A DNA stretch of 64,000 nucleotides from NCBI RefSeq assembly GCF_024298765.1, contig NZ_CP101210.1. The stretch is one strand, 5' to 3'. The notes below the pieces were generated by a model that saw only the letters and a program-made list of their open reading frames with translations, made no database searches and was not told the DNA's origin. The position numbers and the translations under genes were made by a program. Positions 1 through 60,052 of this stretch are shown piece by piece. Every line of letters starts with the position of its first letter. Positions within the stretch are counted from its first letter, which is position 1. This DNA is from Escherichia coli. Lineage in GTDB: Bacteria; Pseudomonadota; Gammaproteobacteria; Enterobacterales; Enterobacteriaceae.

Positions 1-573
1 GCCACGGGGAAAACGGGTGCTGCCGGAGGTGTACTGGAGGTAGGCGATATCGTTCGGAACTGGACGCTGGAGCGCAACATCGGCTTCCGGTAATGCCTTA
101 AACCAGGCGTGGCTTAAAACATGTAATTCGGGGTTGTTGTTATGCGTCGCGGCATTGACCAGCGGTAACCACTCATCACCAGTGATAATGGCTGCGGGCT
201 GGCAACTTGCCAGTAAACCCTGCAGTTTGGCGCTCCAGGAATCCCGCTGACCGACGCCCATTGGAATCGCCAACGGGACGGCGACTAAGCCGGCACACTG
301 GCAGGAAAAAAAAGCCTCTACAAACCCGCTACTCGTTTCGGCAATCAGCGCCACGCGATCGCCTTTTTTCAGGTTCAGCGATAACAACCGCTTCGCACCA
401 GCTTCGGCACGCGCTTTTAACGTCTGATATTCCAGTTGATCTTCAAGTTGGCAACGTCTGTCATAAAAATTCATTCCGGCGCTACTCAGAGCGGCGTAGT
501 CCAAAGCATCAACCAGCGTTGGAAAATCGGCATAGCGCATAGGTAGGGAATGCGTAAAGATTTTATTAGACAT
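1..573 (-). CDS. AMP-dependent synthetase/ligase (fatty-acyl-AMP ligase-like), N-terminal part; continues past window start
   Basis: Reverse-strand translation from ATG at 573 (or 540) reads MSNKIFTHSLPMRYADFPTLVDALDYAALSSAGMNFYDRRCQLEDQLEYQTLKARAEAGAKRLLSLNLKKGDRVALIAETSS..., typical acyl-AMP ligase N-terminus; frame open to position 1. Not in ORF track because no stop lies inside the window. Confidence 0.55.
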   Translation of the reverse strand, partial: MSNKIFTHSLPMRYADFPTLVDALDYAALSSAGMNFYDRRCQLEDQLEYQTLKARAEAGAKRLLSLNLKKGDRVALIAETSSGFVEAFFSCQCAGLVAVPLAIPMGVGQRDSWSAKLQGLLASCQPAAIITGDEWLPLVNAATHNNNPELHVLSHAWFKALPEADVALQRPVPNDIAYLQYTSGSTRFPRG

Positions 574-943
574 ATACACCACGAAAAAATTGGATATCAA
601 AAATAAAATGACAATAATGCGGTGGATTATATAGGCATAAAAGATAAATGAGATAGTATTTTCATCAGTGTGAAAATGAACATTGATTTAAATAATGAGT
701 TTGAGTTTTTTTGTTTTTATTGTGAATGATATTTAATTTATGAATATATTAAGAAGAAGCCTTGTCCGGTCGCCTTAAATCGACAAAAGGCATTGTGGCG
801 CTTCTGTGTAGTCTCTGACCTTATCGTAATCATTAATAATACTATTTATTCGTCGTTTGTATTCATTGGGTTGATTGTTAAGGTGCCGTTCGTTGCTGTT
901 GCAACCTGTTTGTCACCGTTAATTATTTGTTACCCACAGAACT

Positions 944-2086
944 ATGGAATGCGATCTGCTGATGATTAAAATTGAAAAAGTAATTAATAAAAATGACCTT
1001 AAGGCATTTATCGCTTTTCCGTCATCACTTTATCCCGACGATCCAAACTGGATACCCCCTTTATTCATTGAACGCAACGAGCATTTGTCTGCGAAAAATC
1101 CGGGGACGGACCATATCATCTGGCAGGCGTGGGTGGCAAAAAAAGCGGGGCAGATAGTTGGGCGTATTACCGCGCAAATCGATACCTTGCACCGCGAGCG
1201 TTACGGCAAAGATACCGGTCATTTCGGCATGATTGACGCCATTGATGATCCGCAGGTTTTTGCCGCGTTGTTTGGCGCAGCGGAAGCGTGGTTGAAGTCA
1301 CAAGGTGCAAGTAAGATCAGCGGTCCTTTCAGCCTGAATATCAATCAGGAAAGCGGATTACTGATTGAAGGTTTCGATACACCACCCAGTGCGATGATGC
1401 CACACGGTAAACCGTGGTATGCCGCGCATATTGAACAACTGGGTTATCACAAAGGCATTGATTTACTGGCGTGGTGGATGCAGCGAACCGATCTCACTTT
1501 CTCTCCGGCGCTAAAAAAACTGATGGATCAGGTGCGCAAAAAAGTGACCATTCGCTGCATCAATCGCCAGCGGTTTGCCGAAGAGATACAGATCCTGCGT
1601 GAGATTTTCAATTCTGGCTGGCAGCACAACTGGGGATTTGTGCCGTTTACCGAACATGAATTCGCGACCATGGGCGATCAACTTAAATATCTGGTGCCGG
1701 ACGATATGATCTACATCGCTGAGATTGATTCTGCACCCTGCGCGTTTATTGTTGGCTTGCCGAACATCAACGAGGCGATTGCCGATCTGAACGGATCGCT
1801 CTTTCCCTTCGGCTGGGCAAAATTGCTGTGGCGTTTGAAAGTCAGCGGTGTGCGAACTGCGCGAGTGCCGCTGATGGGCGTGCGGGACGAGTATCAGTTC
1901 AGCCGCATCGGCCCGGTAATTGCGCTGTTATTGATTGAAGCCTTACGCGATCCGTTTGCCCGTCGGAAGATCGATGCGCTGGAGATGTCATGGATCCTCG
2001 AAACCAATACAGGCATGAATAACATGCTGGAACGCATTGGGGCGGAGCCGTACAAGCGTTACCGATTGTATGAAAAGCAGATTTGA
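944..2086 (+). CDS. yghO: YghO-like protein (380 aa), intact
   Basis: 380-aa ORF convergent with glcC, in the position yghO occupies next to glcC in E. coli; identity assigned from position and recollection, not from a search. Confidence 0.55.
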   Translation: MECDLLMIKIEKVINKNDLKAFIAFPSSLYPDDPNWIPPLFIERNEHLSAKNPGTDHIIWQAWVAKKAGQIVGRITAQIDTLHRERYGKDTGHFGMIDAIDDPQVFAALFGAAEAWLKSQGASKISGPFSLNINQESGLLIEGFDTPPSAMMPHGKPWYAAHIEQLGYHKGIDLLAWWMQRTDLTFSPALKKLMDQVRKKVTIRCINRQRFAEEIQILREIFNSGWQHNWGFVPFTEHEFATMGDQLKYLVPDDMIYIAEIDSAPCAFIVGLPNINEAIADLNGSLFPFGWAKLLWRLKVSGVRTARVPLMGVRDEYQFSRIGPVIALLLIEALRDPFARRKIDALEMSWILETNTGMNNMLERIGAEPYKRYRLYEKQI

Positions 2087-2092
2087 TGGCAG

Positions 2093-2857
2093 TCACCCCT
2101 GCTTCATCTCCAGCGGCACCGCCGAGCGAATCAAATGGTGGCCTTCCAGCTCGATATCGTGGAGATTCTTTTTCACGGTCCGCACATGATCACGTGCTGC
2201 GCGCTGGGCGACGTGCGGCAGCCGCTGCAACACCGCGTTGTAGATCCGCGCATGCTGGCGATCGATCTGCTTTTTTTGCTGTGGTCGATGGTAGAGATTA
2301 TTTACGCTGGCAAACACTGAATTAAACATCAGATCGGTCAATGATTGCAGCGTAAACACCAGCACCTGATTGTGAGAAGCCTGACAAATGGCGAGATGGA
2401 AAGCGTGATCCAACTGCGCATGTTCGATCAGCGAAATCTCTTTGTTGTTCTCACTGGCGGCGAGCATTTTTTCATAACAGCGGGTTATCACAACAAAATC
2501 AGCCTGGGTTCCCAGCGTTGCCGCCAGCCTTGCCGATTCGCCCTCCAGTAATGCGCGAACGTCGAGCAGATCGTACAGCGTTCGCGGCTGCGTACTGAAC
2601 AGATGGATCAGCGGGCTGGCGTCCTGCACCCGATTAAGCCGTGCGACACGAGAATCGCGACCCTGCGCCGTTTCAATAATCCCGCGCCCGCGCAGCACGG
2701 TCAGCCCTTCACGCAGTGCGGAGCGTGAGAAGCCGAGCTTTTCACACAGTCGACGTTCCGAGGGAAGCGGCTGACCGACCTTCAACACGCCGTCGATAAT
2801 TAACCGTTCGATACTCTCTGCAACCACTTCGCAAATAGGGCGACGTTCATCTTTCAT
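2093..2857 (-). CDS. glcC: GntR/FadR-family transcriptional activator of the glycolate operon
   Basis: Translation from internal Met MKDERRPICEVVAESIERLIIDGVLKVGQPLPSERRLCEKLGFSRSALREGL... gives ~254 aa with N-terminal winged HTH; divergent from glcD. Confidence 0.9.
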   Translation of the reverse strand: MKDERRPICEVVAESIERLIIDGVLKVGQPLPSERRLCEKLGFSRSALREGLTVLRGRGIIETAQGRDSRVARLNRVQDASPLIHLFSTQPRTLYDLLDVRALLEGESARLAATLGTQADFVVITRCYEKMLAASENNKEISLIEHAQLDHAFHLAICQASHNQVLVFTLQSLTDLMFNSVFASVNNLYHRPQQKKQIDRQHARIYNAVLQRLPHVAQRAARDHVRTVKKNLHDIELEGHHLIRSAVPLEMKQG

Positions 2858-3107
2858 TCCCGGACCTCGTGCACAGGTAGGACCAATTTTTCTGTTCTTA
2901 ACTCGCAAAACACGCACATCACGCAAGTGATTATGTTACATCAATTTAACATTAAGTTAACCAAGGCAAGGTCACAGAGCTGGAAAAAAAATGGTCTGAC
3001 CGGTAGCTAAAGAGATAGACGAAAACGAAAAGCCCGCTTAATAACTGTTCACAGAAGCAGCGCGCAAAAATCAGCTGCCACACAACACAACAAAGCGAAG
3101 CCTATTC
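2858..3107. promoter_or_regulatory. Divergent glcC / glcDEFGB control region
   Basis: 250-bp intergenic spacer between divergently oriented glcC and glcD; no individual promoter elements called. Confidence 0.45.
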
Positions 3108-4607
3108 ATGAGCATCTTGTACGAAGAGCGTCTTGATGGCGCTTTACCCGATGTCGACCGCACATCGGTACTGATGGCACTGCGTGAGCATGTCCCTGGA
3201 CTTGAGATCCTGCATACCGATGAGGAGATCATTCCTTACGAGTGTGACGGGTTGAGCGCGTATCGCACGCGTCCATTACTGGTTGTTTTGCCAAAGCAGA
3301 TGGAACAGGTGACGGCGATTCTGGCTGTCTGCCACCGCCTGCGTGTACCGGTCGTGACCCGTGGTGCAGGCACCGGGCTTTCTGGTGGCGCGCTGCCTCT
3401 GGAAAAAGGTGTGTTGTTGGTGATGGCGCGCTTTAAAGAGATCCTCGACATTAACCCCGTTGGTCGCCGCGCGCGCGTGCAGCCGGGCGTGCGTAACCTG
3501 GCGATCTCCCAGGCCGTTGCGCCGCATAATCTCTATTACGCGCCGGATCCTTCCTCACAAATCGCCTGTTCAATTGGCGGCAATGTGGCGGAAAATGCCG
3601 GTGGCGTTCACTGCCTGAAATATGGTCTGACCGTACAGAACCTGCTGAAAATTGAAGTGCAAACGCTGGACGGCGAGGCGCTGACGCTGGGATCGGATGC
3701 GCTGGATTCGCCTGGTTTTGACCTGCTGGCGCTGTTCACCGGATCGGAAGGTATGCTCGGCGTGACCACCGAAGTGACGGTAAAACTGCTGCCGAAGCCG
3801 CCCGTGGCGCGGGTTCTGTTAGCCAGCTTTGACTCGGTAGAAAAAGCCGGACTTGCGGTTGGTGACATCATCGCCAATGGCATTATCCCCGGCGGGCTGG
3901 AGATGATGGATAACCTGTCGATTCGCGCGGCGGAAGATTTTATTCATGCCGGTTATCCCGTCGATGCCGAAGCGATTTTGTTATGCGAACTGGACGGCGT
4001 GGAGTCTGACGTACAGGAAGACTGCGAGCGAGTTAACGACATCTTGTTGAACGCGGGTGCGACTGACGTCCGTCTGGCACAGGACGAAGCAGAGCGAGTA
4101 CGTTTCTGGGCCGGTCGCAAAAATGCGTTCCCGGCGGTAGGACGTATCTCCCCGGATTACTACTGCATGGATGGCACCATCCCGCGCCGCGCCCTGCCTG
4201 GCGTACTGGAAGGCATTGCCCGTTTATCGCAGCAATATGATTTACGCGTTGCCAACGTCTTTCATGCCGGAGACGGCAACATGCACCCGTTAATCCTTTT
4301 CGATGCCAACGAACCCGGTGAATTTGCCCGCGCGGAAGAACTGGGCGGGAAGATCCTCGAACTCTGCGTTGAAGTTGGCGGCAGCATCAGTGGGGAACAT
4401 GGCATCGGGCGCGAAAAAATCAATCAAATGTGCGCCCAGTTCAACAGCGATGAAATCACGACCTTCCATGCGGTCAAGGCGGCGTTTGACCCCGATGGTT
4501 TGCTGAACCCAGGAAAAAACATTCCCACGCTACACCGCTGTGCTGAATTTGGTGCCATGCATGTGCATCACGGTCATTTACCTTTTCCTGAACTGGAGCG
4601 TTTCTGA
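3108..4607 (+). CDS. glcD: Glycolate oxidase FAD-linked subunit
   Basis: 499-aa ORF MSILYEERLDGALPDVDRTS...; FAD-binding oxidase signature; first gene of glc operon. Confidence 0.95.
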   Translation: MSILYEERLDGALPDVDRTSVLMALREHVPGLEILHTDEEIIPYECDGLSAYRTRPLLVVLPKQMEQVTAILAVCHRLRVPVVTRGAGTGLSGGALPLEKGVLLVMARFKEILDINPVGRRARVQPGVRNLAISQAVAPHNLYYAPDPSSQIACSIGGNVAENAGGVHCLKYGLTVQNLLKIEVQTLDGEALTLGSDALDSPGFDLLALFTGSEGMLGVTTEVTVKLLPKPPVARVLLASFDSVEKAGLAVGDIIANGIIPGGLEMMDNLSIRAAEDFIHAGYPVDAEAILLCELDGVESDVQEDCERVNDILLNAGATDVRLAQDEAERVRFWAGRKNAFPAVGRISPDYYCMDGTIPRRALPGVLEGIARLSQQYDLRVANVFHAGDGNMHPLILFDANEPGEFARAEELGGKILELCVEVGGSISGEHGIGREKINQMCAQFNSDEITTFHAVKAAFDPDGLLNPGKNIPTLHRCAEFGAMHVHHGHLPFPELERF

Positions 4608-5659
4608 TGCTACGCGAGTGTGATTACAGCCAGGCGCTGCTGGAGCAGGTGAATCAGGCGATTAGCGATAAAACGCCGCTGGTGATTCAGGGCAGCAATA
4701 GCAAAGCCTTTTTAGGTCGCCCTGTCACCGGGCAAACGCTGGATGTGCGTTGTCATCGCGGCATTGTTAATTACGACCCGACCGAGCTGGTGATAACCGC
4801 GCGTGCCGGAACGCCGCTGGTGGCGATTGAAGCAGCGCTGGAGAGCGCCGGGCAAATGCTCCCCTGCGAGCCGCCGCATTATGGTGAAGAAGCCACCTGG
4901 GGCGGGATGGTCGCTTGCGGGCTGGCGGGGCCGCGTCGCCCGTGGAGTGGTTCGGTCCGCGATTTTGTCCTCGGCACGCGCATCATTACCGGCACTGGAA
5001 AACATCTGCGTTTTGGTGGCGAAGTGATGAAAAACGTTGCCGGATACGATCTCTCACGGTTAATGGCCGGAAGCTACGGTTGTCTTGGCGTGCTCACTGA
5101 AATCTCGATGAAAGTGTTACCGCGACCACGCGCCACCCTGAGTCTGCGTCGGGAAATCAGCCTGCAAGAAGCCATGAATGAAATCGCCCAGTGGCAACTC
5201 CAGCCATTACCCATTAGTGGCTTATGTTACTTCGACAATGCGTTGTGGATCCTCCTTGAGGGCGGCGGTGGATCGGTAAAAGCAGCGCGTGAACTGCTGG
5301 GGGGCGAAGAGGTTGCGGGTCAGTTCTGGCAGCAATTGCGTGAACAACAACTGCCGTTCTTCTCGTTACCAGGTACCTTATGGCGCATTTCCTTACCCAG
5401 CGATGCGCCGATGATAGATTTACCCGGCGAGCAACTGATCGACTGGGGCGGGGCGCTACGCTGGCTGAAATCGACAGCCGATGACAATCAAATCCATCGC
5501 ATCGCCCGCAACGCTGGCGGTCATGCGACCCGCTTTAGTGCCGGAGATGGTGGTTTTGCCCCGCTACCGGCTCCTTTATTCCGCTATCACCAGCAGCTTA
5601 AACAGCAGCTCGACCCTTGCGGCGTGTTTAACCCCGGTCGCATGTACGCGGAACTTTGA
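4607..5659 (+). CDS. glcE: Glycolate oxidase FAD-binding subunit
   Basis: 350-aa ORF; start overlaps glcD stop (ATGA-type overlap at 4605-4609). Confidence 0.93.
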   Translation: MLRECDYSQALLEQVNQAISDKTPLVIQGSNSKAFLGRPVTGQTLDVRCHRGIVNYDPTELVITARAGTPLVAIEAALESAGQMLPCEPPHYGEEATWGGMVACGLAGPRRPWSGSVRDFVLGTRIITGTGKHLRFGGEVMKNVAGYDLSRLMAGSYGCLGVLTEISMKVLPRPRATLSLRREISLQEAMNEIAQWQLQPLPISGLCYFDNALWILLEGGGGSVKAARELLGGEEVAGQFWQQLREQQLPFFSLPGTLWRISLPSDAPMIDLPGEQLIDWGGALRWLKSTADDNQIHRIARNAGGHATRFSAGDGGFAPLPAPLFRYHQQLKQQLDPCGVFNPGRMYAEL

Positions 5660-5669
5660 GGAGCAGGCT

Positions 5670-6893
5670 ATGCAAACCCGATTAACAGAAGAGATGCGGC
5701 AGAACGCGCGCGCGCTGGAAGCCGACAGCATCCTGCGCGCCTGTGTTCACTGCGGATTTTGTACCGCAACCTGCCCAACCTATCAGCTTCTGGGCGATGA
5801 ACTGGACGGGCCGCGCGGGCGCATCTATCTGATTAAACAGGTACTGGAAGGCAACGAAGTCACGCTTAAAACACAGGAGCATCTCGATCGCTGTCTCACT
5901 TGCCGCAATTGTGAAACCACCTGTCCTTCTGGTGTGTGTTATCACAATTTGCTGGATATCGGGCGTGATATTGTCGAGCAGAAAGTGAAACGCCCACTGC
6001 CGGAGCGAATGCTGCGCGAAGGATTGCGCCAGGTAGTGCCGCGTCCGGCGGTCTTCCGTGCGCTGACGCAGGTAGGGCTGGTGCTGCGACCGTTTTTACC
6101 GGAACAGGTCAGAGCAAAACTGCCTGCTGAAACCGTGAAAGCTAAACCGCGTCCACCGCTGCGCCATAAGCGTCGGGTTTTAATGCTGGAAGGCTGCGCC
6201 CAGCCTACGCTTTCGCCCAACACCAACGCGGCAACTGCGCGAGTGCTGGATCGTCTGGGGATCAGCGTCATGCCAGCTAACGAAGCAGGCTGTTGTGGCG
6301 CGGTGGACTATCATCTTAATGCGCAAGAGAAAGGGTTAGCGCGGGCGCGCAATAATATTGATGCCTGGTGGCCCGCGATTGAAGCAGGTGCCGAGGCAAT
6401 TTTGCAAACCGCCAGCGGTTGCGGCGCGTTCGTTAAAGAGTATGGGCAGATGCTGAAAAACGATGCGTTGTATGCCGATAAAGCGCGTCAGGTCAGTGAG
6501 CTGGCGGTCGATTTAGTCGAACTTCTGCGCAAGGAACCACTGGAAAAACTGGCAATTCGCGGTGATAAAAAACTGGCCTTCCACTGCCCGTGTACCCTAC
6601 AACATGCGCAAAAGCTGAACGGCGAAGTGGAAAAAGTGTTATTTCGTCTTGGATTTACCTTAACGGACGTTCCCGACAGCCATCTGTGCTGCGGTTCAGC
6701 GGGAACATATGCGTTAACGCATCCCGATCTGGCACGCCAGCTGCGGGATAACAAAATGAATGCGCTGGAAAGCGGCAAACCGGAAATGATCGTCACCGCC
6801 AACATTGGTTGCCAGACGCATCTGGCGAGCGCCGGTCGTACCTCTGTGCGTCACTGGATTGAAATTGTAGAACAAGCCCTTGAAAAGGAATAA
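5670..6893 (+). CDS. glcF: Glycolate oxidase iron-sulfur subunit
   Basis: ATG at 5670 preceded by GGAG; protein MQTRLTEEMRQNARALE... with two CxxCxxCxxxCP ferredoxin-like motifs (CVHCGFCTATCP, CLTCRNCETTCP). The longer ORF from 5481 is an in-frame upstream extension overlapping glcE. Confidence 0.9.
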   Translation: MQTRLTEEMRQNARALEADSILRACVHCGFCTATCPTYQLLGDELDGPRGRIYLIKQVLEGNEVTLKTQEHLDRCLTCRNCETTCPSGVCYHNLLDIGRDIVEQKVKRPLPERMLREGLRQVVPRPAVFRALTQVGLVLRPFLPEQVRAKLPAETVKAKPRPPLRHKRRVLMLEGCAQPTLSPNTNAATARVLDRLGISVMPANEAGCCGAVDYHLNAQEKGLARARNNIDAWWPAIEAGAEAILQTASGCGAFVKEYGQMLKNDALYADKARQVSELAVDLVELLRKEPLEKLAIRGDKKLAFHCPCTLQHAQKLNGEVEKVLFRLGFTLTDVPDSHLCCGSAGTYALTHPDLARQLRDNKMNALESGKPEMIVTANIGCQTHLASAGRTSVRHWIEIVEQALEKE

Positions 6894-6897
6894 CAAA

Positions 6898-7302
6898 ATG
6901 AAAACTAAAGTCATTCTTAGCCAGCAAATGGCGAGTGCAATTATTGCCGCAGGTCAGGAAGAGGCGCAGAAAAACAACTGGTCTGTTTCCATTGCTGTTG
7001 CCGATGACGGCGGTCATCTGCTGGCGTTAAGTCGCATGGACGATTGCGCGCCGATTGCGGCTTACATCTCCCAGGAGAAAGCGCGTACCGCCGCGCTGGG
7101 GCGTCGTGAAACTAAGGGCTATGAAGAGATGGTGAACAACGGACGTACCGCGTTCGTGACTGCGCCGTTACTGACGTCGCTGGAAGGCGGCGTACCGGTT
7201 GTTGTTGATGGGCAAATTATTGGTGCCGTGGGCGTTTCTGGTTTAACCGGAGCACAGGATGCGCAGGTCGCGAAAGCGGCAGCAGCGGTGTTGGCGAAAT
7301 AA
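6898..7302 (+). CDS. glcG: GlcG protein (heme-binding-like, DUF336)
   Basis: ATG at 6898 with AAGGAA SD; MKTKVILSQQMASAIIAAGQEEAQKNNWSVSIAVADDGGHLLALSRMD... Confidence 0.9.
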   Translation: MKTKVILSQQMASAIIAAGQEEAQKNNWSVSIAVADDGGHLLALSRMDDCAPIAAYISQEKARTAALGRRETKGYEEMVNNGRTAFVTAPLLTSLEGGVPVVVDGQIIGAVGVSGLTGAQDAQVAKAAAAVLAK

Positions 7303-7323
7303 GCGAAAACGAGGAGAGAAACA

Positions 7324-9495
7324 ATGAGTCAAACCATAACCCAGGGCCGTTTACGCATTGACGCCAATTTTAAACGTTTTGTGGATGAAGAAGTTTTGCC
7401 GGGCGTGGAACTGGACGCTGCCGCGTTCTGGCGCAATGTTGATGAGATCGTTCACGATCTGGCGCCAGAGAATCGTCAGTTGCTGGCAGAGCGTGATCGC
7501 ATTCAGGCGGCGCTTGATGAGTGGCATCGCAGCAATCCGGGGCCGGTAAAAGATAAAGCGGCCTATAAATCTTTCCTGCGTGAACTGGGCTACCTGGTGC
7601 CACAGCCTGACCACGTTACGGTGGAAACCACGGGCATCGACAGCGAAATCACCAGTCAGGCGGGGCCACAGCTGGTGGTTCCGGCGATGAACGCCCGCTA
7701 CGCGCTGAACGCGGCGAACGCTCGCTGGGGCTCACTGTACGATGCGTTATACGGCAGTGACATCATCCCGCAGGAAGGGGCGATGGTCAGCGGCTACGAT
7801 CCGCAGCGTGGTGAGCAGGTTATCGCCTGGGTTCGGCGTTTCCTCGATGAATCACTACCGCTGGAAAACGGCAGCTATCAGGATGTGGTGGCGTTTAAGG
7901 TGGTCGATAAACAATTACGCATCCAGTTGAAAAATGGTAAAGAAACCACGTTACGTACTCCAGCACAGTTTGTCGGTTACCGTGGCGATACTGCTGCGCT
8001 GACCTGCATTTTGCTGAAAAATAACGGCCTGCATATTGAGCTACAAATCGATGCCAACGGGCGGATTGGCAAAGACGATTCGGCGCACATCAACGATGTT
8101 ATCGTCGAAGCGGCCATCAGTACCATTCTCGACTGCGAAGATTCGGTTGCGGCGGTTGATGCGGAAGATAAAATCCTGCTGTACCGCAACCTGCTGGGCC
8201 TGATGCAGGGGACTCTGCAAGAGAAAATGGAGAAGAACGGTCGGCAAATCGTGCGTAAACTGAATGACGATCGTCAGTACACTGCCGCCGATGGATCTGA
8301 AATTTCTCTGCACGGACGCTCGTTGCTGTTTATCCGCAACGTGGGTCATTTGATGACCATTCCTGTGATTTGGGACAGCGAAGGCAATGAAATCCCGGAA
8401 GGCATTCTTGATGGCGTCATGACTGGCGCGATTGCCCTCTATGATTTAAAAGTGCAGAAAAACTCGCGCACTGGCAGCGTCTATATTGTGAAACCGAAAA
8501 TGCACGGTCCGCAGGAAGTGGCGTTCGCCAACAAACTGTTTTCCCGCGTTGAGACAATGCTCGGTATGGCACCGAATACCCTGAAAATGGGCATTATGGA
8601 TGAAGAACGCCGGACCTCGCTGAACTTGCGTAGCTGTATCGCTCAGGCGCGCAACCGCGTGGCGTTCATCAATACCGGTTTCCTCGACCGTACCGGCGAT
8701 GAAATGCATTCGGTGATGGAAGCGGGCCCGATGCTGCGTAAAAACCAGATGAAATCGACGCCGTGGATCAAAGCCTACGAACGTAATAACGTGCTTTCCG
8801 GTCTGTTCTGTGGGCTACGTGGAAAAGCGCAAATCGGTAAAGGCATGTGGGCAATGCCGGACCTGATGGCAGACATGTACAGCCAGAAGGGCGACCAATT
8901 GCGTGCCGGGGCAAACACGGCCTGGGTTCCGTCGCCAACTGCCGCTACGCTCCATGCGCTACACTACCACCAAACCAACGTACAGAGCGTGCAAGCCAAC
9001 ATTGCCCAGACCGAGTTCAATGCTGAATTTGAACCGCTGCTGGACGATCTGCTGACTATTCCGGTTGCTGAAAACGCTAATTGGTCGGCGCAAGAGATCC
9101 AACAAGAGCTGGATAACAACGTGCAGGGGATTCTGGGGTACGTGGTGCGTTGGGTGGAGCAGGGGATTGGTTGTTCAAAAGTGCCGGATATTCACAACGT
9201 GGCGTTGATGGAAGACCGCGCAACGCTGCGTATTTCCAGCCAGCATATCGCCAACTGGTTACGTCACGGTATTCTGACCAAAGATCAGGTGCAGGCGTCG
9301 CTGGAGAATATGGCGAAAGTGGTTGATCAGCAAAACGCTGGCGATCCGGCTTATCGTCCAATGGTGGAGAATTTCGCTAACTCGTGTGCTTTTAAAGCTG
9401 CCTGCGATTTGATCTTCCTCGGAGTGAAACAGCCAAACGGCTATACCGAACCGTTATTACACGCATGGCGTTTACGCGAAAAAGAAAATCATTAA
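7324..9495 (+). CDS. glcB: Malate synthase G
   Basis: 723-aa [30 protein letters not shown]..., size and sequence typical of malate synthase G. Confidence 0.95.
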
Positions 9496-9850
9496 TAGCG
9501 TCAAAAAAAGCCCCGGCAAGATTTATTGTCGGGGCTATGATAGTAACTGCGGTAGTACATTTATCCCGGAAATAACCGGAGCGATTATCAGGGGTTAACA
9601 ATATTAAATACCCGTAGCGCATCACTAGCGGGATTAAAACAACAATATGGACATCTTAACGATACTCTGCGCCTGCGTGTGCGGAACAGAAACCCTTACC
9701 CGATATACTTGTTATGCCAGAGGTAGCAATTGCGTTAGCGGCGTACTGTTGCTGTAAAGTATAACGCCTATATTTTACAGTTCAGTCCTCTTTTGCTTAT
9801 TACAACCTTAAGTATATCAAGCATATAAAGATAATAAGAGACTGAACAAT

Positions 9851-11533
9851 ATGGTTACCTGGACCCAAATGTATATGCCGATGGGAGGACTGGGGCTATC
9901 CGCTCTGGTCGCCCTGATCCCAATAATATTCTTCTTCGTTGCACTCGCGGTATTACGTCTGAAAGGACATGTCGCTGGAGCAATAACCCTTATATTATCT
10001 ATTCTGATTGCGATATTCGCCTTTAAAATGCCGATTGATATGGCATTTGCTGCTGCGGGCTATGGCTTTATTTATGGTTTATGGCCTATTGCGTGGATTA
10101 TTGTCGCGGCGGTATTCCTGTATAAATTAACCGTTGCCAGCGGCCAGTTCGATATTATCCGCAGCTCGGTTATCTCCATCACCGACGATCAGCGTTTGCA
10201 GGTGTTACTGATTGGTTTCTCCTTTGGTGCGCTGCTGGAAGGGGCGGCTGGCTTTGGCGCGCCGGTGGCGATTACCGGTGCGCTGCTGGTGGGCCTGGGC
10301 TTCAAACCGTTATACGCGGCGGGGCTGTGTCTGATTGCCAATACTGCGCCGGTGGCGTTTGGTGCGTTGGGCGTGCCGATTCTGGTCGCCGGTCAGGTAA
10401 CGGGAATCGATCCGTTCCACATTGGCGCAATGGCGGGACGTCAGTTACCGTTCCTGTCGGTTCTTGTACCGTTCTGGCTGGTAGCAATGATGGACGGCTG
10501 GAAAGGGGTGAAAGAGACGTGGCCAGCGGCGCTGGTTGCTGGGGGAAGCTTCGCTGTCACGCAGTTCTTTACCTCTAACTATATTGGTCCGGAACTGCCG
10601 GATATTACTTCGGCGCTGGTGAGTATCGTCTCACTCGCTTTATTCCTTAAAGTCTGGCGGCCGAAAAATACCGAAACGGCAATCAGCATGGGACAATCCG
10701 CAGGAGCGATGGTGGTGAATAAACCATCTTCTGGCGGTCCCGTGCCTTCAGAATATAGTCTGGGGCAAATCATTCGTGCGTGGTCACCGTTTTTAATCTT
10801 AACGGTGCTGGTCACCATCTGGACCATGAAGCCGTTTAAAGCGTTATTTGCTCCGGGCGGCGCGTTTTATTCACTGGTGATTAATTTCCAGATCCCTCAT
10901 TTGCATCAACAAGTGTTGAAAGCGGCACCCATTGTCGCCCAACCAACGCCAATGGATGCGGTGTTTAAATTCGACCCTCTCTCGGCTGGCGGCACCGCTA
11001 TTTTTATTGCGGCGATTATCTCTATCTTCATCCTCGGCGTGGGCATCAAGAAAGGGATTGGCGTCTTTGCCGAAACGCTAATTAGTCTGAAGTGGCCGAT
11101 ATTGTCGATTGGCATGGTGCTGGCGTTCGCCTTCGTCACCAACTATTCCGGTATGTCCACCACGCTGGCGCTGGTACTGGCAGGTACAGGCGTGATGTTC
11201 CCGTTCTTTTCGCCATTCCTCGGCTGGCTGGGGGTATTCCTTACCGGCTCGGACACCTCCTCTAACGCCCTGTTTGGTTCACTGCAATCGACCACGGCGC
11301 AGCAAATCAACGTCTCTGACACACTGCTGGTGGCAGCAAATACCAGCGGCGGCGTAACTGGCAAGATGATCTCCCCGCAATCTATCGCCGTGGCCTGCGC
11401 CGCGACGGGCATGGTGGGCCGGGAATCTGAACTGTTCCGCTACACCGTGAAGCACAGTCTGATTTTTGCCAGCGTTATCGGCATTATCACGCTGTTGCAG
11501 GCGTATGTGTTTACTGGGATGTTAGTCTCGTAA
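9851..11533 (+). CDS. glcA: Glycolate/lactate permease (LctP family)
   Basis: 560-aa polytopic membrane protein [35 protein letters not shown]... Confidence 0.9.
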
Positions 11534-12017
11534 ATCAATAATGCCGGATGATCGTTAATATCATCCGGCTTCATTTACATTATTCTGTCTTATTAATTGA
11601 AAATTATTTCTCGCTTTATTATCCATGCGGCAATAATATTTTGTGTTTAGATAACCTGCTAAATAATTAAGATCGTGAGAACATCTATTTTTTATCACGC
11701 AAAACAAGTCTGTACTAATTATGTTCGCTTGATGAGCAAACACCGTTCTATCTGTTGCTTTTGCAATCTTAATCGTTAAAACTACCAACAAATTTATATA
11801 GTTACGTTGTGAATGGTTGTTAATTTTTTGTTTATTGAAATTTCGTAAAAATAACCATCCAGACATCGAATAGGGGTTATTCTTATAAATTTTACCTGTT
11901 TTTCTATCAATGATGCCGTTTTCTTAAGAATGGAGGAAGTTATTAAAGAAGATAAAGCATAAAACTATTTCTCCCAGTTACGAATTTTTTAACATTGTTT
12001 TGTCACTTGCGTTATTA

Positions 12018-42645: not shown

Positions 42646-44625
42646 ATGAACTTACAAGACAAAGAACAAAGCGCCAAACTCTCCAGTGCTATTTGGCGTA
42701 TGGCAGATGATTTATGGGGTGATTTCAAACACACCGATTTTGCGCGGATTATCCTGCCATTTTTGCTACTGCGTCGTATTGAATGCGTGTTAGAACCCAC
42801 CCGTGAGGAAGTTCGTAAGTTCTATCTGGCCGAAAAACAATCCGGCATAGACCTTGGTTTAGTGTTGCCAGAAATTGCGGGATTCGCCTTTTACAACACC
42901 AGTGAATATAGCCTAGAAACCTTAGGCGCGTCAGACACCGGCGACAACCTAGAACACTACATCAGCCAGTTCAGCAAAAACGTTCGTACCATCTTTGATG
43001 AGTTTAAATTTGGTCAAACCATAGAAGATCTGGAAAAAGCCAAGTTGCTGTATCGCATGGTAAACCATTTTGCCAACCTCGACTTGCATCCTGATGTAGT
43101 GTCTGACCGCGTATTATCAGATGCTTATGAAGAGCTGATTCTAAAGTTCGCCAGTTCGGTTAATGAAAAGGCCGGGGAATTTATGACCCCGCGTGATGCC
43201 GTGCGTCTTGCCACCAAACTGGTGCTGGCGGCGGATGAAGATATCTTTAGTGAAAAGGGTGTGATCCGCACCATCTATGACCCAACCTGTGGCACGGGCG
43301 GTTTCCTTTCCGATGCCATTAGCCAAATTGAAGAAATGGGCAGCAGCGCTAAAGTCGTGCCTTTTGGTCAAGAGCTCGACCCCGCGACCCATGCCATGGC
43401 GCTGACCAATATGATGATCCGCGGTTTTGATGCCAATAACATCAAGCAAGGCAACACCTTATCAGACGATCAGTTACGTGCCGACAAGTTTCACTACGGC
43501 CTTGCCAACCCGCCATTTGGCATTAAGTGGGAAAAAGCCAAGAAAGAAGTAGAACGTGAGCACAAACAGCTCAAATACGCCGGACGCTTTGGGCCAGGCC
43601 TGCCGAGTATTTCTGATGGTTCAATGCTGTTTTTACTGCACTTGGTATCAAAAATGGAAACGCCGGAAAATGGTGGTGGCCGAGTGGGTATAGTCCTTTC
43701 TGGCTCGCCACTGTTTAATGGCGATGCAGGCTCAGGCCCATCAGAAATCCGCCGTTGGCTGCTAGAACAAGACTTAGTCGAAGCGATTGTTGCCCTGCCA
43801 ACCGATATGTTCTTCAACACCGGCATTGGCACCTACATCTGGATTTTGACTAACCATAAAGAGCCAAGACGCAAGAATCAGGTGCAACTGATTAACTTGG
43901 CAGATATTTGGACTCCCATGCGTAAATCGCAAGGCGATAAGCGCAAGTACCTGAGTGATGAACAGATTGACGATATTGTCCGTGCGTACGATGGCTTTGA
44001 AGCCAGTGACAACTGTAAGATCTTCCAGACTACTGATTTTGCCTACCGTAAAGTCACCATTCAGCGTCCACTGCGTGCCAAACTAGATATTACCGCTGCG
44101 GGCATTGCTGCATTTGTGCAGCAAGATACGTTTAAAAAACTCAAACCAGAGCAACAAGCGGCATGGGTACAATACCTCACCGATAACCTTGGCCTTCAGC
44201 CTTATGAATGGGCACGTTTGGCGGTTAAGAAGAATAACAATAAGGGTGACTTTGGTAAGTGCTCAAAAGCACTGGCTACGGCCTTAACTGCGCACTTTGT
44301 AAAAATTGATCCGCAATTTGAGCCTGCACTGGATGAAAAAGGCCAAGTGATCGCCGACCCTAAACTCAAAGACACCGAAAGCATTCCTTTTGACCGCGAC
44401 GTTGAAGATTACTTCGCACAAGAGGTGCTGCCACATGTACCGGATGCCTTTATTGATCACTCAGTGCGTGATGAAAAAGACGGCGAAGTGGGCATTGTCG
44501 GTTATGAAATTAACTTTAACCGCTATTTCTACCAATACGTGCCACCACGCGAGTTGAGTGTGATTGATCGTGAGCTAAAAGCATGTGAAGCGCGCATTCA
44601 GGCTCTGCTGAATGAGGTGGCGTAA
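42646..44625 (+). CDS. hsdM: Type I restriction-modification system, DNA methyltransferase subunit
   Basis: AdoMet motif DPTCGTGGFL and catalytic NPPF (GLANPPFGIKWEK); 659 aa. Confidence 0.9.
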   Translation: MNLQDKEQSAKLSSAIWRMADDLWGDFKHTDFARIILPFLLLRRIECVLEPTREEVRKFYLAEKQSGIDLGLVLPEIAGFAFYNTSEYSLETLGASDTGDNLEHYISQFSKNVRTIFDEFKFGQTIEDLEKAKLLYRMVNHFANLDLHPDVVSDRVLSDAYEELILKFASSVNEKAGEFMTPRDAVRLATKLVLAADEDIFSEKGVIRTIYDPTCGTGGFLSDAISQIEEMGSSAKVVPFGQELDPATHAMALTNMMIRGFDANNIKQGNTLSDDQLRADKFHYGLANPPFGIKWEKAKKEVEREHKQLKYAGRFGPGLPSISDGSMLFLLHLVSKMETPENGGGRVGIVLSGSPLFNGDAGSGPSEIRRWLLEQDLVEAIVALPTDMFFNTGIGTYIWILTNHKEPRRKNQVQLINLADIWTPMRKSQGDKRKYLSDEQIDDIVRAYDGFEASDNCKIFQTTDFAYRKVTIQRPLRAKLDITAAGIAAFVQQDTFKKLKPEQQAAWVQYLTDNLGLQPYEWARLAVKKNNNKGDFGKCSKALATALTAHFVKIDPQFEPALDEKGQVIADPKLKDTESIPFDRDVEDYFAQEVLPHVPDAFIDHSVRDEKDGEVGIVGYEINFNRYFYQYVPPRELSVIDRELKACEARIQALLNEVA

Positions 44626-45911
44626 TGAATGCTGGCAACATAGTAGATGCTTTCGTATCTGACTCGAAATGGAACTCAGTACCAGCTAAACGTTTATTTA
44701 CGAGTAGCAAAGAAATCAATCAAGGAATGAAAGAATCTAATCGTCTTGCACTAACAATGAAAGGTGTCATAAACCGCTCGTTAGACGATTTACAAGGACT
44801 TCAATCTTCTGATTACTCTGTTTATCAGATTTTTGAAAAAGATGACTTAGTTTTTAAGCTCATAGATCTTGAAAATATAAAGACTAGCCGAGTGGGGATT
44901 GTGCATGAACGAGGAATAATGAGCCCTGCATACATCCGTGTTTCAGCGAGTTCAAATAGCATCTACCCAAGGTTCTATTACTGGTACTTTTTTGCTCTAT
45001 ACCTAACCAATATTTATAACAAACTGGGTGGAGGAGTTCGTCAGAACCTAACAGCTGGTGATCTTTTAGAAATACCTGTTCCACTGATTGATATTTCATT
45101 ACAGAAGCAGGTTAGCACATTCCTTGATCGCGAAACCCAGCGCATCGACAGTCTGATCGAGGAAAAGCAGACCTTTATTAAGCTGCTCAAAGAAAAACGC
45201 CAAGCACTGATCAGCCATGTGGTCACAAAGGGGCTCTATCCCAATGTGGAGATGCAGGACTCTGGCATCGAGTGGATTGGGCAAGTGCCGAAGCATTGGG
45301 AAGTCAAAAAGATAAAGCATATTTGCTCCAACTTTATGTATGGAACCTCTCAAGACTGTAACCAGTCTGATGTTGGCTATCCTGTTCTCAGGATACCAAA
45401 CATCAAGAGTACCAATGTTGATTTTGAAGATCTCAAATATGCAAATATCAGTGATGTTGATGCTTTAACTTATCTTTTATCAAGAGGCGACATTTTAGTC
45501 ATCAGAACTAACGGTAACCCTAATCTGGTCGGCCAAAGCGCGCTTTTTGATTCAAATGGGCAGTATTTATTTGCGTCGTACCTAATAAAGTTAACACCAA
45601 AGCAAGGAGTGGATACTAGCTTCTTAGTGGAAGCGATGAACTCACTATCTGTTCGTCAAGCATTAACATTTCAGTCAAGAACATCGGTAGGTAACTACAA
45701 CCTGAGCATTCCTTCACTAGCTAATACAAGTATTGCTATCCCACCAATTGATGAGCAAAAGACAATAACGAATTACTTGAGTGCAGCAACGATAAACATT
45801 GATTTACTGATTCAAGAGACTGATAAATCGATTGATCTTCTAAAAGAACACCGCACATCGCTGATCAACGCGGCTGTCACAGGAAAAATAGACGTCAGGG
45901 AGGCGGTGTAA
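44625..45911 (+). CDS. hsdS: Type I restriction-modification system, specificity subunit
   Basis: 428 aa with two target-recognition domains separated by conserved repeats (LIEEKQTFIKLLKEKRQALISHVVTKGL / LLIQETDKSIDLLKEHRTSLINAAVTGKIDV); start overlaps hsdM stop (TAATG). Confidence 0.85.
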   Translation: MNAGNIVDAFVSDSKWNSVPAKRLFTSSKEINQGMKESNRLALTMKGVINRSLDDLQGLQSSDYSVYQIFEKDDLVFKLIDLENIKTSRVGIVHERGIMSPAYIRVSASSNSIYPRFYYWYFFALYLTNIYNKLGGGVRQNLTAGDLLEIPVPLIDISLQKQVSTFLDRETQRIDSLIEEKQTFIKLLKEKRQALISHVVTKGLYPNVEMQDSGIEWIGQVPKHWEVKKIKHICSNFMYGTSQDCNQSDVGYPVLRIPNIKSTNVDFEDLKYANISDVDALTYLLSRGDILVIRTNGNPNLVGQSALFDSNGQYLFASYLIKLTPKQGVDTSFLVEAMNSLSVRQALTFQSRTSVGNYNLSIPSLANTSIAIPPIDEQKTITNYLSAATINIDLLIQETDKSIDLLKEHRTSLINAAVTGKIDVREAV

Positions 45912-48900: not shown

Positions 48901-49147
48901 TGCCAACGGTACTATTACGCGTGTCACCCAAAATCCAATTGTGGTTGAGCAGATAGAAAAGCACGACAAGTCGATTGCCCTCAAAGGCGACTTGCCGCAA
49001 GCGGTGAAGCAAGCCGTTGTGCAGGCTCTGCTGAAAGAAGGTGATATAGCCCGAACGCTACTCAAAGACCCACAAGTTATGGCAAGTTATGTTGAGTTGA
49101 TTTTTGACATGATGAAGCAAGGTGCAGAACAGGCGGCGGTGAAATAA
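45911..49147 (+). CDS. hsdR: Type I restriction-modification system, restriction/helicase subunit
   Basis: 1078 aa; Walker A SAGSGKTST, DEAH box (IIDEAHTSQ); start overlaps hsdS stop (TAATG). Confidence 0.9.
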   Translation: MAAHHEVHFEQYITEQLVNNGWKEGHSCHYDQQRALYPQDVMDWVKATQPDAWHKLNKLHGVNAEQVLLERLEKALSSHKAGSKTGGTINVLRKGFTIAGCGTIAMGQRKPEDARNEERIARYEHNILRVVRQLKYCPTREWEIDLVFFINGLPVATAELKTDFTQSLESAIAQYKEDRLPVDPKTKRKEPLLTFKRGAVVHFAMSDTEIAMATKLAGENTYFLPFNKGHDGSTSDLPVHINLPGEDGEYPVSYFWQEIAQKDNWLRIFYSFVYVETKEVADSNGKVERKETQIFPRYHQLAAVNKMIDDARQNGAGMQYLCEHSAGSGKTSTIAWTAHDLIRLRSTDGKAVFKSVIIVTDRTVLDSQLQDAVQQLDHQYGVIKAIDREKSSESKSKQLTEALLTGTPIIVVTIQTFPYALEAILTNQSLAQSNFAVIIDEAHTSQTGSTAKGLRAALTLNLSPQELEQMSIEDILTKVQEARAMPKNVSHFAFTATPKHSTKMLFGRPKDPNQPVSDDNLPESFHLYTQRQAIDEGFILDVLENYTHYDTAYKIGENNLDEKRVDSKQARRALARWMSLHPTTVSQKVEFIIKHFKANIAHLLEGEAKAMVVTSGRPQAVKYKLAFDKYIKKHGIEGIQALVAFSGKVPGKDLGDEDSQDPLEIDFDKEYTEYNLNPDTHGADLRHEFEKTEYRVMLVANKFQTGFNQPKLVAMYLDKKISDVEAVQTLSRLNRTYPGKDTTFVIDFVNDPQTILNAFKKYDKGAQLNEVQDVNVIYDIKDILDEQNIYNHQDLELFKQARGKSILGQSPDKKPHAHKKLLAATQRPTDVFNVKLKELVDAANHWDQQYNKAHLAGDEKAANYAESQRSDFTKQREALMRFKSDLARFVKHYSYMAQLIEFGDPELENFAAFAHLLSRRLKGVTPENIDLSALVLEKFKIKYDKEPLPEAFNQVLEPIRPNYNDPADREQAFLADIIRRLNELFGDVGDEPGRRNFANGTITRVTQNPIVVEQIEKHDKSIALKGDLPQAVKQAVVQALLKEGDIARTLLKDPQVMASYVELIFDMMKQGAEQAAVK

Positions 49148-50543: not shown

Positions 50544-50578
50544 TAGCCCATTATCAGTAACATATGAAGGTTGATTCA

Positions 50579-54986: not shown

Positions 54987-57729
<2,743 letters not shown>

Positions 57730-58237
57730 CGTAAGTAAAATCAGCCACCCACAGCTGGTCAGGTCGTTCTGCCACGAACTGACGGTTTACGCGGTCGCCT
57801 GCGGCAACGGCTTTCCGGCTGATGGTCGTACGGACCTTTTTACCCCGGAGAACACCGGCAAGTCCCATAACCGCCATGAGACGTGCCACTGTACATCTGG
57901 CCACCCTGATTCCTTCCCGTAACAACTGACGCCAGACTTTACGCACACCGTACACCTGATGATTTTCATCGTATACGCGCTGTATCTCTCTCTTCAGCCA
58001 GTCGTCGTGCTGCGCACGGGCACTGCGTTTATCCGGATGATGTCGCTGTTGCTGACAATGGTAATACGTTGACGGGGCAATATGCAGTTCGCTGCATACC
58101 GGTCCGACCCCGTACTGCTCACGCAGCTTATCCAGCAGTGGCATCATTTTTCCAGAGGCGGTCGAACTCCGCCTTCGCAAAATAAGCGGAAGCCTGGCGA
58201 AGGATATCGTTACTGCGGCGCAGTTCACGATTTTCAC
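57730..58237 (-). CDS. IS3 transposase OrfB, 5' exon (upstream of intron)
   Basis: ...[73 protein letters not shown]...[10 protein letters not shown] then intron. Confidence 0.8.
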
Positions 58238-60041: not shown

Positions 60042-60052
60042 AAAGCCTCCAA

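Follow-up and report, generated by a model that had tools for sequence, protein, structure and literature searches.

The first 2,086 nucleotides of the analysed Escherichia coli DNA (64,000 nucleotides of contig NZ_CP101210.1, assembly GCF_024298765.1, hereafter the window) hold the 5' part of aasR, which runs off the left edge, an AT-rich intergenic region, and a divergently transcribed yghO (Table 1). A reading of the sequence alone had placed the N-terminus of an AMP-dependent ligase on the minus strand of the first 573 bp next to a full-length yghO of 380 aa. Both genes are found as described, and the ligase can be specified further as a fatty acyl-AMP ligase (FAAL).

Table 1. Features at the left edge of the window
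Feature	Position in window	Strand	Remarks
aasR 5' part, codons 1-191 of 574	1..573	minus	open frame, with Pfam and NCBIfam matches
divergent aasR/yghO intergenic region	574..943		370 bp, AT-rich
IS5 junction position of K-12, absent here	983..984		K-12 keeps yghO from window 984 on
yghO (aca, cerS, bcerS)	944..2086	plus	380-codon ORF; tandem-GNAT N-acyltransferase, predicted bacterial ceramide synthase

The ligase fragment, the intergenic region and YghO

The aasR frame consists of 191 stop-free codons starting from the ATG at 573 (translation of window 1-573, minus strand, beginning MSNKIFTHSLPMRYADF), and the two remaining frames over the same stretch are interrupted by many stops. The 191-aa fragment matched Pfam AMP-binding (E 3.4e-20) and the NCBIfam model NF006624 'fatty acyl-AMP ligase' (E 3.7e-70, model positions 4-188 of 567), which is far beyond chance. 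Its NF006624 score of 236.9 bits lies under the cut-off of 600 with only one third of the protein inside the window, and the full-length product of strain 104 reaches 861 bits on the same model. The fragment has the ANL-superfamily adenylation domain with its Ser/Thr/Gly-rich AMP-binding signature, and direct reading places the window edge inside this adenylate-forming signature (YTSGSTRFPRG). The encoded product is the N-terminus of the fatty acyl-AMP ligase AasR.

The locus left of the window was read from strain 104, which differs from the window at 4 positions in the 28 kb compared, and is taken to apply to the window's own strain. In strain 104, aasR is 1,725 bp long and encodes a ligase of 574 aa that carries no pseudogene flag and whose first 191 aa are identical to those in the window. 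Extended leftward in this way, the frame stays open to 574 codons and does not close immediately upstream, the outcome that would have spoken against the sequence-only reading. The 'partial' aasR is an artefact of the window edge, and the gene was indeed missed by the ORF track, because the ORF lister skips ORFs that run off an end. An alternative start is annotated at Met12 (window 540), from which aasR is annotated in BL21(DE3), where the longer frame is open as well. In FAALs, the N-terminal domain contains an insertion that keeps them from forming CoA thioesters. Full-length AasR of strain 104 aligned end to end (residues 1-574, ~98% identity, E = 0) with PDB 3PBK, the solved E. coli 'Fatty Acyl-Adenylate Ligase', with few substitutions and one Asn deleted in an NNN run. 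The 191 residues of the window correspond to chain residues 3-193, and the identity with 3PBK leads us to expect the FAAL-specific insertion beyond residue 191, outside the window.

The intergenic region has a GC content of 32% vs. 50-53% in both flanking genes and is ~99% identical to that of BL21(DE3), two small indels aside. Its counterparts in Serratia and at three distant loci span 504-1,286 bp, likewise with a GC content below that of their loci. The 370 bp presumably hold the promoters of both aasR and yghO. A scan of window 450-2250 for sigma-70-like promoters and terminators gave sites no more frequent than in shuffled sequence, so that neither promoter is assigned a position, and an Rfam search of 1-2086 returned nothing.

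The yghO gene is intact. A cryptic disruption, sought as a possible refutation, is absent: the protein has all invariant residues of the family alignment (69 sequences) and is identical to ECD_02850 of BL21(DE3) at 378/380 positions. RefSeq labels the same ORF in matching genomes 'protein YghO'. The conserved start probably lies at the second ATG (962), which would yield a protein of 374 aa, the length of homologues from other genera; the Serratia start MIHIEQV... aligns to MIKIEKV... of E. coli, and alignments of distant homologues begin at query residue 7-10. As Pfam and NCBIfam scans returned no match, the family was approached via homologue searches, structure prediction and synteny. It comprises 1,131 representatives at E<=1e-30 with lengths of 374-392 aa. 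The AlphaFold2 model (mean pLDDT 96.3, pTM 0.92) had the tandem-GNAT structures 5KF1, 2WPW, 7Q3A and MshD as top Foldseek matches in PDB (E 1e-15 to 1e-12), and the fold comparison points to a tandem-GNAT acyltransferase in which a DNA-binding domain is absent. A search of the family profile against PDB sequences gave marginal GNAT matches only (best E 0.015); the family is without a solved structure and only the fold comparison is informative. YghO is confidently modelled as a tandem-GNAT acyltransferase, and its predicted GNAT fold and its length match bacterial ceramide synthases (bCerS), soluble acyltransferases of about 375-390 aa.

Orthology between YghO and the Caulobacter protein was taken from this near-identity to ECD_02850 together with a published BLAST comparison ('aca: CC_1154, yghO ECD_02850'; 44% identity, E 1e-107, 98% coverage; PMC9386255, Table S2). 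Look-ups among the representatives of YghO clusters at 50% identity returned metagenome proteins, few of them named, and no named Caulobacter homologue. In Caulobacter, ceramide-synthase activity has been assigned by genetics and lipid analysis, and we infer the same activity for YghO in E. coli. It is extremely improbable that YghO acts outside the lipid pathway and merely adjoins the operon, its function being lysine acetylation of proteins or regulation through DNA binding. Such a role might be read from homologues named 'DNA-binding protein' or 'N-acetyltransferase' in some sources, from the presence of a K-12 YghO clone in a lysine acetyltransferase screen and from the empty domain scans. 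However, the modelled fold lacks a DNA-binding domain, one homologue is named 'Hypothetical protein associated with Serine palmitoyltransferase', the published list of five genes needed for making ceramide includes the Caulobacter orthologue, and YghO homologues stay linked to aasR/cerR/acpR/spt and LptF/G paralogues from Enterobacterales to distant Proteobacteria-like loci.

Organization and distribution of the locus

The locus sits between yghRST and glcC in the order yghQ, a hypothetical gene, a ytfJ-like gene, lptF2, lptG2, spt, acpR, cerR, aasR, and then yghO. In strain 104, the neighbours of aasR encode an NAD-dependent epimerase/dehydratase-family protein, an 82-aa acyl carrier protein (ACP) of the PP-binding type, Spt and the LptF/LptG pair, and neither there nor in BL21(DE3) is any ORF of the locus flagged. 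An E. coli sphingolipid (dihydroceramide) locus has been published (PMC9386255; bioRxiv 10.64898/2026.04.12.717747), and BL21(DE3) ECD_02850-ECD_02854 (yghO/aca, aasR, epi/cerR, acpR, spt; Padilla-Gomez et al. 2022, PMC9386255) represent the same locus at the same position beside glcC, which identifies the cluster that the sequence-only reading had left unnamed. The differences from BL21(DE3) are allelic only: besides the two intergenic indels, AasR differs by about 15 substitutions and a single-residue indel (~97% identity across the 562 residues annotated in BL21) and YghO by two substitutions.

Caulobacter crescentus shares the same five biosynthetic genes as well as the LptF/G paralogue pair, i.e. 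CC_1154 (cerS/aca = CCNA_01212), CC_1162-CC_1165 (spt, acpR, cerR, aasR) and lptF2/lptG2 (CC_1156/CC_1155), with reported protein identities between the two species of 44% for CerS, 42% for AasR, 53% for Spt, 34% for CerR and 41% for AcpR. The arrangement differs, however, since cerS lies ~8 genes from aasR in Caulobacter, whereas in E. coli, in Serratia and at three distant loci the two genes lie directly side by side and diverge. In Serratia liquefaciens, the YghO homologue is divergent from an AMP-binding/Epimerase/PP-binding/Aminotran_1_2 operon, so that the association with spt, ACP, acyl-ACP synthetase and a CerR-type reductase seen in strain 104 and BL21(DE3) is present there, too. A YghO homologue divergent from an AMP-binding operon also occurs in three distant metagenome loci (L008, L009, L010). 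All four partners are found in L009 and L010, while in L008 AMP-binding and Epimerase genes are present and PP-binding/Aminotran_1_2 were not called in the stretch read. An Aminotran_1_2 gene lies near the homologue in L007, and one locus of the six (L006, where the contig ends 2.5 kb upstream) contains only LptF/G, DAGK_cat and other lipid genes. At five distant loci, an LptF/LptG pair lies beside the YghO homologue.

At least 80% of the 25-kb region was found in 4042 of the 5426 complete E. coli genomes (about 75%), across phylogroups and including Nissle 1917, UTI89, HS and ETEC, although the locus was cast as an 'E. coli B' feature in PMC9386255. Intact loci predominate in E. coli, and K-12 is the exception. 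This prevalence, together with the synteny in Serratia and more distant bacteria, marks the intact arrangement as the older one and bears out the suggestion that this strain retains an ancestral cluster that K-12 has lost.

Losses in K-12 and other lineages

The yghO and yghQ remnants of K-12 occupy the same chromosomal position as the locus in the window. Aligned with strain 104 by BLAST, the K-12 locus has 1,194 bp of IS5 in place of 8,385 bp (L003 8599-16983). The deletion runs from about codon 357 of yghQ to codon 13 of yghO and removed aasR, cerR, acpR, spt, lptG2, lptF2, the ytfJ-like gene and an unknown gene. The sequence-only reading was correct in regarding yghO as disrupted in K-12: in the K-12 derivative NEB Turbo, IS5 abuts window 984 and the match to the window begins only there. 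K-12 yghO is without the promoter region and codons 1-13 of the 380-codon ORF, and from codon 15 to the end it is identical to the window gene except for two substitutions. The tetranucleotides flanking IS5 in K-12 differ (TTAG vs. TTAA, the latter found at window 984). The window itself reads through 944-1000 without IS5 and on into the intergenic region and aasR, and does not carry the K-12-type allele. The K-12 state is derived, the product of an IS5-associated deletion whose junction sequence occurs in 351 of the 5426 complete genomes.

There was no match to window 1-12000 in ~840 genomes; a search artefact was ruled out as the cause by an O157-like genome with a real replacement, in which the region from within pitB rightward is replaced by IS elements and an island. 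Further truncated forms of the locus exist in other E. coli, and yghS is frameshifted in strain Z135-5. Several independent losses, in K-12, in the O157-like lineage and in others, imply that the locus is dispensable. Where yghO and aasR are present, they are under continuing purifying selection, with dN/dS of 0.04-0.09 for both genes within E. coli; the value for yghO against Serratia is 0.04, with dS saturated.

Proposed pathway and final product

Taken together, the gene content, synteny and published biochemistry make it highly probable that this stretch is the right-hand boundary of a chromosomal E. coli locus for biosynthesis and export of sphingolipids (dihydroceramide), operating as follows. 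The minus-strand operon aasR-cerR(epi)-acpR-spt would be headed by aasR, whose product would adenylate a long-chain fatty acid and pass the acyl group to the dedicated carrier AcpR and not to CoA, after which Spt would condense acyl-AcpR and serine to 3-oxo-sphinganine. YghO, transcribed divergently from the region presumably shared with aasR, would add the second, amide-linked acyl chain as does its proposed Caulobacter orthologue CerS/Aca, and CerR, a putative NAD-dependent epimerase-family reductase, would reduce the 3-keto group to give dihydroceramide. Export would likely fall to the adjacent LptF/LptG paralogues and to YghQ, which resembles MOP flippases.

The AasR-AcpR-Spt chemistry has been demonstrated for both Caulobacter and E. 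coli (PMC9386255), while native lipid production has been demonstrated for Caulobacter only. Co-overexpressed AasR, AcpR and Spt of BL21(DE3) produced 3-oxo-sphinganine, and E. coli AasR supports this only with E. coli AcpR (PMC9386255). According to the literature, E. coli AcpR bears 4'-phosphopantetheine, and E. coli Spt favours acylated AcpR (with Caulobacter AcpR as substrate) over acyl-CoA. Caulobacter AasR acylates AcpR in vitro, not CoA or AcpP (PMC9386255). Transport of sphingolipids in Caulobacter needs LptF2/G2, and the UTI89 locus of E. coli has been drawn as homologous; we infer both the roles of the E. coli transport genes and the native expression of the locus. The Rossmann motif of the E. 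coli CerR homologue begins at residue 9 and leaves no room for a signal peptide, whereas Caulobacter CerR was reported to be periplasmic.

Could the operon and yghO make another amino-lipid, e.g. an alpha-hydroxyketone-type signal or an N-acyl amino alcohol, with a BioF/Kbl/CqsA-like enzyme instead of a true Spt? The Spt-like protein does match BioF, Kbl and CqsA-type autoinducer synthase models, which is explained by the membership of Spt in the alpha-oxoamine synthase superfamily. However, in strain 104 only the NCBIfam serine palmitoyltransferase equivalog NF047599 was passed (598.6 bits, cut-off 500), with BioF (335.8 vs. 426), Kbl (299 vs. 460) and the CqsA-type model (226 vs. 428) all under their cut-offs, and formation of 3-oxo-sphinganine from serine by the E. 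coli enzyme has been shown both in vitro and in vivo. Head-group genes unlike those of Caulobacter and a native product that has not been observed so far would be compatible with another amino-lipid, which we nevertheless regard as very unlikely.

The literature examined contained no report of a native E. coli sphingolipid, and BL21(DE3) empty-vector controls, in which the chromosomal locus is present, contained no 3-oxo-sphinganine (PMC9386255); expression in the laboratory is therefore undetectable or absent. One explanation would be a silent, decaying relic in which the E. coli genes are still recognizable but the lipid is no longer made, with K-12 as the end state. The repeated losses described above, from the IS5-associated deletion to the O157-like replacement of everything right of pitB, the other truncated forms and the yghS frameshift, could be read in the same way as the BL21(DE3) controls. 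Decay is nonetheless improbable given the low dN/dS of aasR and yghO, the unflagged ORFs in strain 104 and BL21(DE3), the activity of AasR, AcpR and Spt cloned from E. coli, and the retention of the region in most complete genomes across phylogroups.

A more far-reaching possibility, less likely than not, is that most natural E. coli and relatives such as Serratia can produce a so far unseen ceramide-type lipid of the outer membrane, as K-12, the standard laboratory strain, is without the genes and the AT-rich aasR/yghO promoter region may be silent in ordinary culture. Its head group might be unlike that of the Caulobacter ceramide phosphoglycerate. Compared with Caulobacter, E. coli has neither cpgABC-type head-group genes nor the DAGK_cat-type ceramide kinase that occurs in the distant loci; present instead are yghR, yghS and yghT, which are P-loop kinase-like, yghQ, a YtfJ-family gene and a gene for an unknown protein of 274 aa without family match. 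The prediction of a differing head group follows from this gene content.

The locus is real but ordinary in that the genes, their arrangement, the 3PBK structure and the first three biochemical steps are already known from published work, and spt, the FAAL and yghO are already named in RefSeq. What is added here are the fold model of YghO, the recurring divergent arrangement, the distribution across genomes, the K-12 breakpoint and the dN/dS values. The locus is also a reminder that K-12 is exceptional here: through an IS5-associated deletion of 8.4 kb it has lost a lipid pathway that is still present, and under purifying selection, in about three quarters of complete E. coli genomes.

The ligase gene at the window edge and its neighbour yghO

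The left end of the window carries the 5' part of aasR, a fatty acyl-AMP ligase (FAAL) gene, arranged head-to-head with yghO (aca/cerS), a predicted ceramide synthase gene. The aasR frame begins with MSNKIFTHSLPMRYADFPTLV and leaves the window within the adenylate-forming signature (...YLQYTSGSTRFPRG), while the remaining two minus-strand frames are full of stops. It matches Pfam AMP-binding (E 3.4e-20) and, much more specifically, NCBIfam NF006624 'fatty acyl-AMP ligase' (E 3.7e-70, model positions 4-188 of 567), in line with the sequence-only reading of these 573 bp as the N-terminus of an AMP-dependent ligase; the ORF track had missed it because the ORF lister omits ORFs running off an end. 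Followed leftward in E. coli strain 104 (NZ_CP029164; locus record L003), which shows 4 mismatches to the window across the 28 kb compared, the frame continues to a gene of 1,725 bp and 574 aa without a pseudogene flag, and residues 1-191 are identical to the window fragment. The "partial" state of aasR is an artefact of the window edge; what lies left of the window in the source strain we infer from such near-identical genomes. The full-length ligase scores 861 bits on NF006624 (cut-off 600) and aligns over residues 1-574 with PDB 3PBK 'Fatty Acyl-Adenylate Ligase' at ~98% identity, so a crystal structure already exists for this enzyme. In BL21(DE3) the aasR start is annotated 12 codons later (Met12, window 540), but the longer frame is likewise open in that strain, and the 3PBK chain contains the longer N-terminus.

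Features of the window
Feature	Position	Strand	Remarks
aasR, 5' part	1-573	minus	single open frame, 191 codons, ATG at 573
aasR-yghO intergenic region	370 bp between the two genes		32% G+C versus 50-53% in genes
yghO	944-2086	plus	380-codon ORF; named yghO by RefSeq in matching genomes
glcC	2093-2857	minus	directly right of yghO, followed by the glcDEFGBA operon
C0719 sRNA	9551-9772	minus	glcB-glcA intergenic region; Rfam RF00117, 294 bits, full length
HsdM	42646-44625	plus	type I restriction-modification system
HsdS	44625-45911	plus	type I restriction-modification system
HsdR	45911-49147	plus	type I restriction-modification system
ORF	49147-49701	plus	no Pfam match
ORF	49701-50543	plus	no Pfam match
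RhuM-family gene	50564-51613	plus	
Group II intron	55460-57073	minus	includes an Rfam Intron_gpII match (55460-55546) directly 3' of the maturase ORF
Reverse transcriptase/maturase ORF	55550-57073	minus	RVT_1 and GIIM
190-aa ORF	57665-58237		
ALIL pseudoknot	58073-58188	minus	IS3-family transposase programmed-frameshift element
GFO/IDH/MocA oxidoreductase and MFS transporter pair	58923-61330		
Group II D1-D4 match	62558-62697	plus	

The neighbouring yghO is intact, as had been read from the sequence. Its product is identical to the BL21(DE3) protein at 378 of 380 positions and aligns over its full length with homologues; a search for cryptic disruption found none, and all positions invariant in a 69-sequence alignment are conserved. 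The second ATG (window 962), which gives 374 aa, is probably the conserved start, because homologues from Serratia, Citrobacter, Pluralibacter, Pantoea and Erwinia all have this length, the Serratia N-terminus (MIHIEQVLDKRDLK) aligns with E. coli MIKIEKVINKNDLK, and alignments with distant homologues begin at query residues 7-10. By sequence, no solved structure was found for the family in the PDB (best E 0.015). A model built from the 69-sequence alignment (mean pLDDT 96.3, pTM 0.92) has tandem-GNAT acyltransferases as its best PDB fold matches (E 1e-15 to 1e-12), namely a Clostridium glucosamine N-acetyltransferase, a clavulanate-pathway tandem GNAT, MAB_4324 and mycothiol synthase.

The AT-rich region between the divergent genes presumably holds both promoters, and a simple sigma-70 scan of window 450-2250 gave nothing above shuffled background. 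We infer that its composition may attract H-NS-type silencing, which, if real, would fit the missing 3-oxo-sphinganine in BL21(DE3) empty-vector controls, which bear the chromosomal locus (PMC9386255). On the right-hand side, the mechanical ORF of glcC (2093-2926, minus strand) reaches a TTG at 2926 (277 aa); the 254-aa form starting at 2857 is backed by RefSeq and by the GlcC model, which aligns from residue 24 of the 277-aa frame onward.

Farther right, base-for-base identity with strain 104 ends from ~32 kb onward, and the island that holds the restriction-modification genes and the three ORFs after them (42646-51613) is absent at the same position from this otherwise near-identical strain. 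The group II D1-D4 match represents a second copy, possibly a partial one, since it is separate from the intron, on the opposite strand and 5.5 kb away. The ALIL pseudoknot adjoining the 190-aa ORF indicates an IS3-family element between the intron and the oxidoreductase-transporter pair.

The sphingolipid cluster and its predicted pathway

The cluster is a bacterial sphingolipid gene set already published for E. coli. In strain 104 and BL21(DE3) the order is yghT, yghS, yghR, yghQ (MOP-flippase-like, with Polysacc_synt matches), a 274-aa gene whose product had no family match in domain assignment, a YtfJ-family gene and LptF and LptG paralogues, followed on the opposite strand by spt, an 82-aa acyl carrier protein (acpR), an NAD-dependent epimerase/dehydratase-family reductase (epi, cerR) and the FAAL gene, with the divergent yghO next. 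Spt scores 598.6 bits on the NCBIfam serine palmitoyltransferase equivalog, above its cut-off of 500; on the BioF, Kbl and CqsA-type models it stays below each cut-off. Padilla-Gomez et al. 2022 named the BL21(DE3) genes aasR (ECD_02851), epi (ECD_02852), acpR (ECD_02853), spt (ECD_02854) and 'aca: ... yghO ECD_02850', with 42%, 34%, 41%, 53% and 44% identity, respectively, to the Caulobacter proteins (PMC9386255). In the same work, E. coli AcpR bears 4'-phosphopantetheine, AasR functions with its own AcpR and not with that of Caulobacter, Spt prefers acylated AcpR (assayed with that of Caulobacter) over acyl-CoA, and co-expression of AasR, AcpR and Spt yields 3-oxo-sphinganine, which is absent from the empty-vector controls (PMC9386255).

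In the proposed pathway, AasR adenylates a long-chain fatty acid and loads it on AcpR, and Spt joins acyl-AcpR and serine to 3-oxo-sphinganine; for both steps there is published work with the E. coli enzymes. The CerS orthologue YghO would add the amide-linked acyl chain, as orthology, fold and synteny suggest, and the epimerase-family reductase would reduce the 3-keto group; the order of these two steps is debated in Caulobacter. By analogy with Caulobacter, YghQ and the LptF/G paralogues may carry the lipid outward: the Caulobacter paralogues are needed for sphingolipid transport, and the UTI89 locus has been drawn as homologous (bioRxiv 10.64898/2026.04.12.717747). In the literature consulted, we found no report of a native E. 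coli sphingolipid.

The head-to-head arrangement of aasR and yghO recurs in Serratia liquefaciens (YghO 82% identical) and in three distant metagenome loci (43-49%), two of which have AMP-binding, Epimerase, PP-binding and Aminotran_1_2 genes all on one side, while in the third only the AMP-binding and Epimerase genes appear. LptF/LptG pairs lie on the other side in all three, and two further distant loci keep an LptF/G pair together with lipid head-group genes; in one source a YghO homologue bears the name 'Hypothetical protein associated with Serine palmitoyltransferase'. A DAGK_cat kinase is found in all five distant loci, in most of them alongside CDP-OH_P_transf, Tam41-like, NTP_transf_3 or Metallophos genes. 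The enterobacterial locus, in contrast, has no DAGK_cat ceramide kinase; left of the window (L003 5115-9703) it has three P-loop 'dTMP kinase-like' genes (yghT, yghS, yghR), yghQ, the gene for the 274-aa protein and the YtfJ-family gene. These differences in kinase and accessory genes suggest that the head group differs in Enterobacterales.

The E. coli CerR-type reductase (L003 13938-14852, minus strand, ~1.1 kb left of the window) begins with MNQTVAVTGATGFIGKY, and its Rossmann GxxGxxG motif at residues 9-15 leaves no space for an N-terminal signal peptide, whereas the Caulobacter enzyme is reported to reside in the periplasm. The E. coli enzyme would either be exported without a cleavable N-terminal signal or act in the cytoplasm.

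Loss in K-12 and prevalence in the species

The statement in the sequence-only reading that yghO is disrupted in K-12 was correct. In a K-12 derivative, similarity to the window starts only at position 984. Compared with strain 104 by BLAST, the K-12 locus lacks 8,385 bp (L003 8599-16983), from within yghQ (~codon 357) to yghO codon 13, and carries 1,194 bp of IS5 instead. An IS5-associated deletion fits better than a simple insertion, because the flanking tetranucleotides differ (TTAG left, TTAA right). The remaining 366 yghO codons are intact except for two substitutions, and in the 378-aa K-12 'YghO' of RefSeq the initial residues derive from the end of IS5.

Of the 5,426 complete E. coli genomes surveyed, 351 carry this K-12 IS5 junction, ~840 have no match to window 1-12000 (yghO through glcA), and further truncated forms exist. 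In the O157-like strain 110 (record 842732-852256), pitB is truncated and the sequence right of mid-pitB, spanning the sphingolipid locus, is replaced by IS elements (copies of IS3, IS66 and IS1203) and an island, with a pseudogene for a TcdA/TcdB-type glycosyltransferase.

With presence defined as at least 80% of a segment, window 1-2100 occurs in 4,090 of the 5,426 genomes, the 10.7-kb yghQ-to-yghO segment in 4,063 and the 25-kb hybG-to-glcB region in 4,042, among them HS, UTI89, Nissle 1917, ETEC and O111/O145 strains. The literature assigns the locus to 'E. coli B' strains (PMC9386255); it is in fact the majority state of the species, and the suggestion that an ancestral cluster lost in K-12 is kept here is supported. 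Within E. coli, yghO has a dN/dS of 0.04-0.05 and aasR one of 0.07-0.09; when yghO is compared with its Serratia homologue the value is 0.04, with dS saturated. The locus is published, annotated in RefSeq and structurally characterised, and its intact state is common in E. coli.
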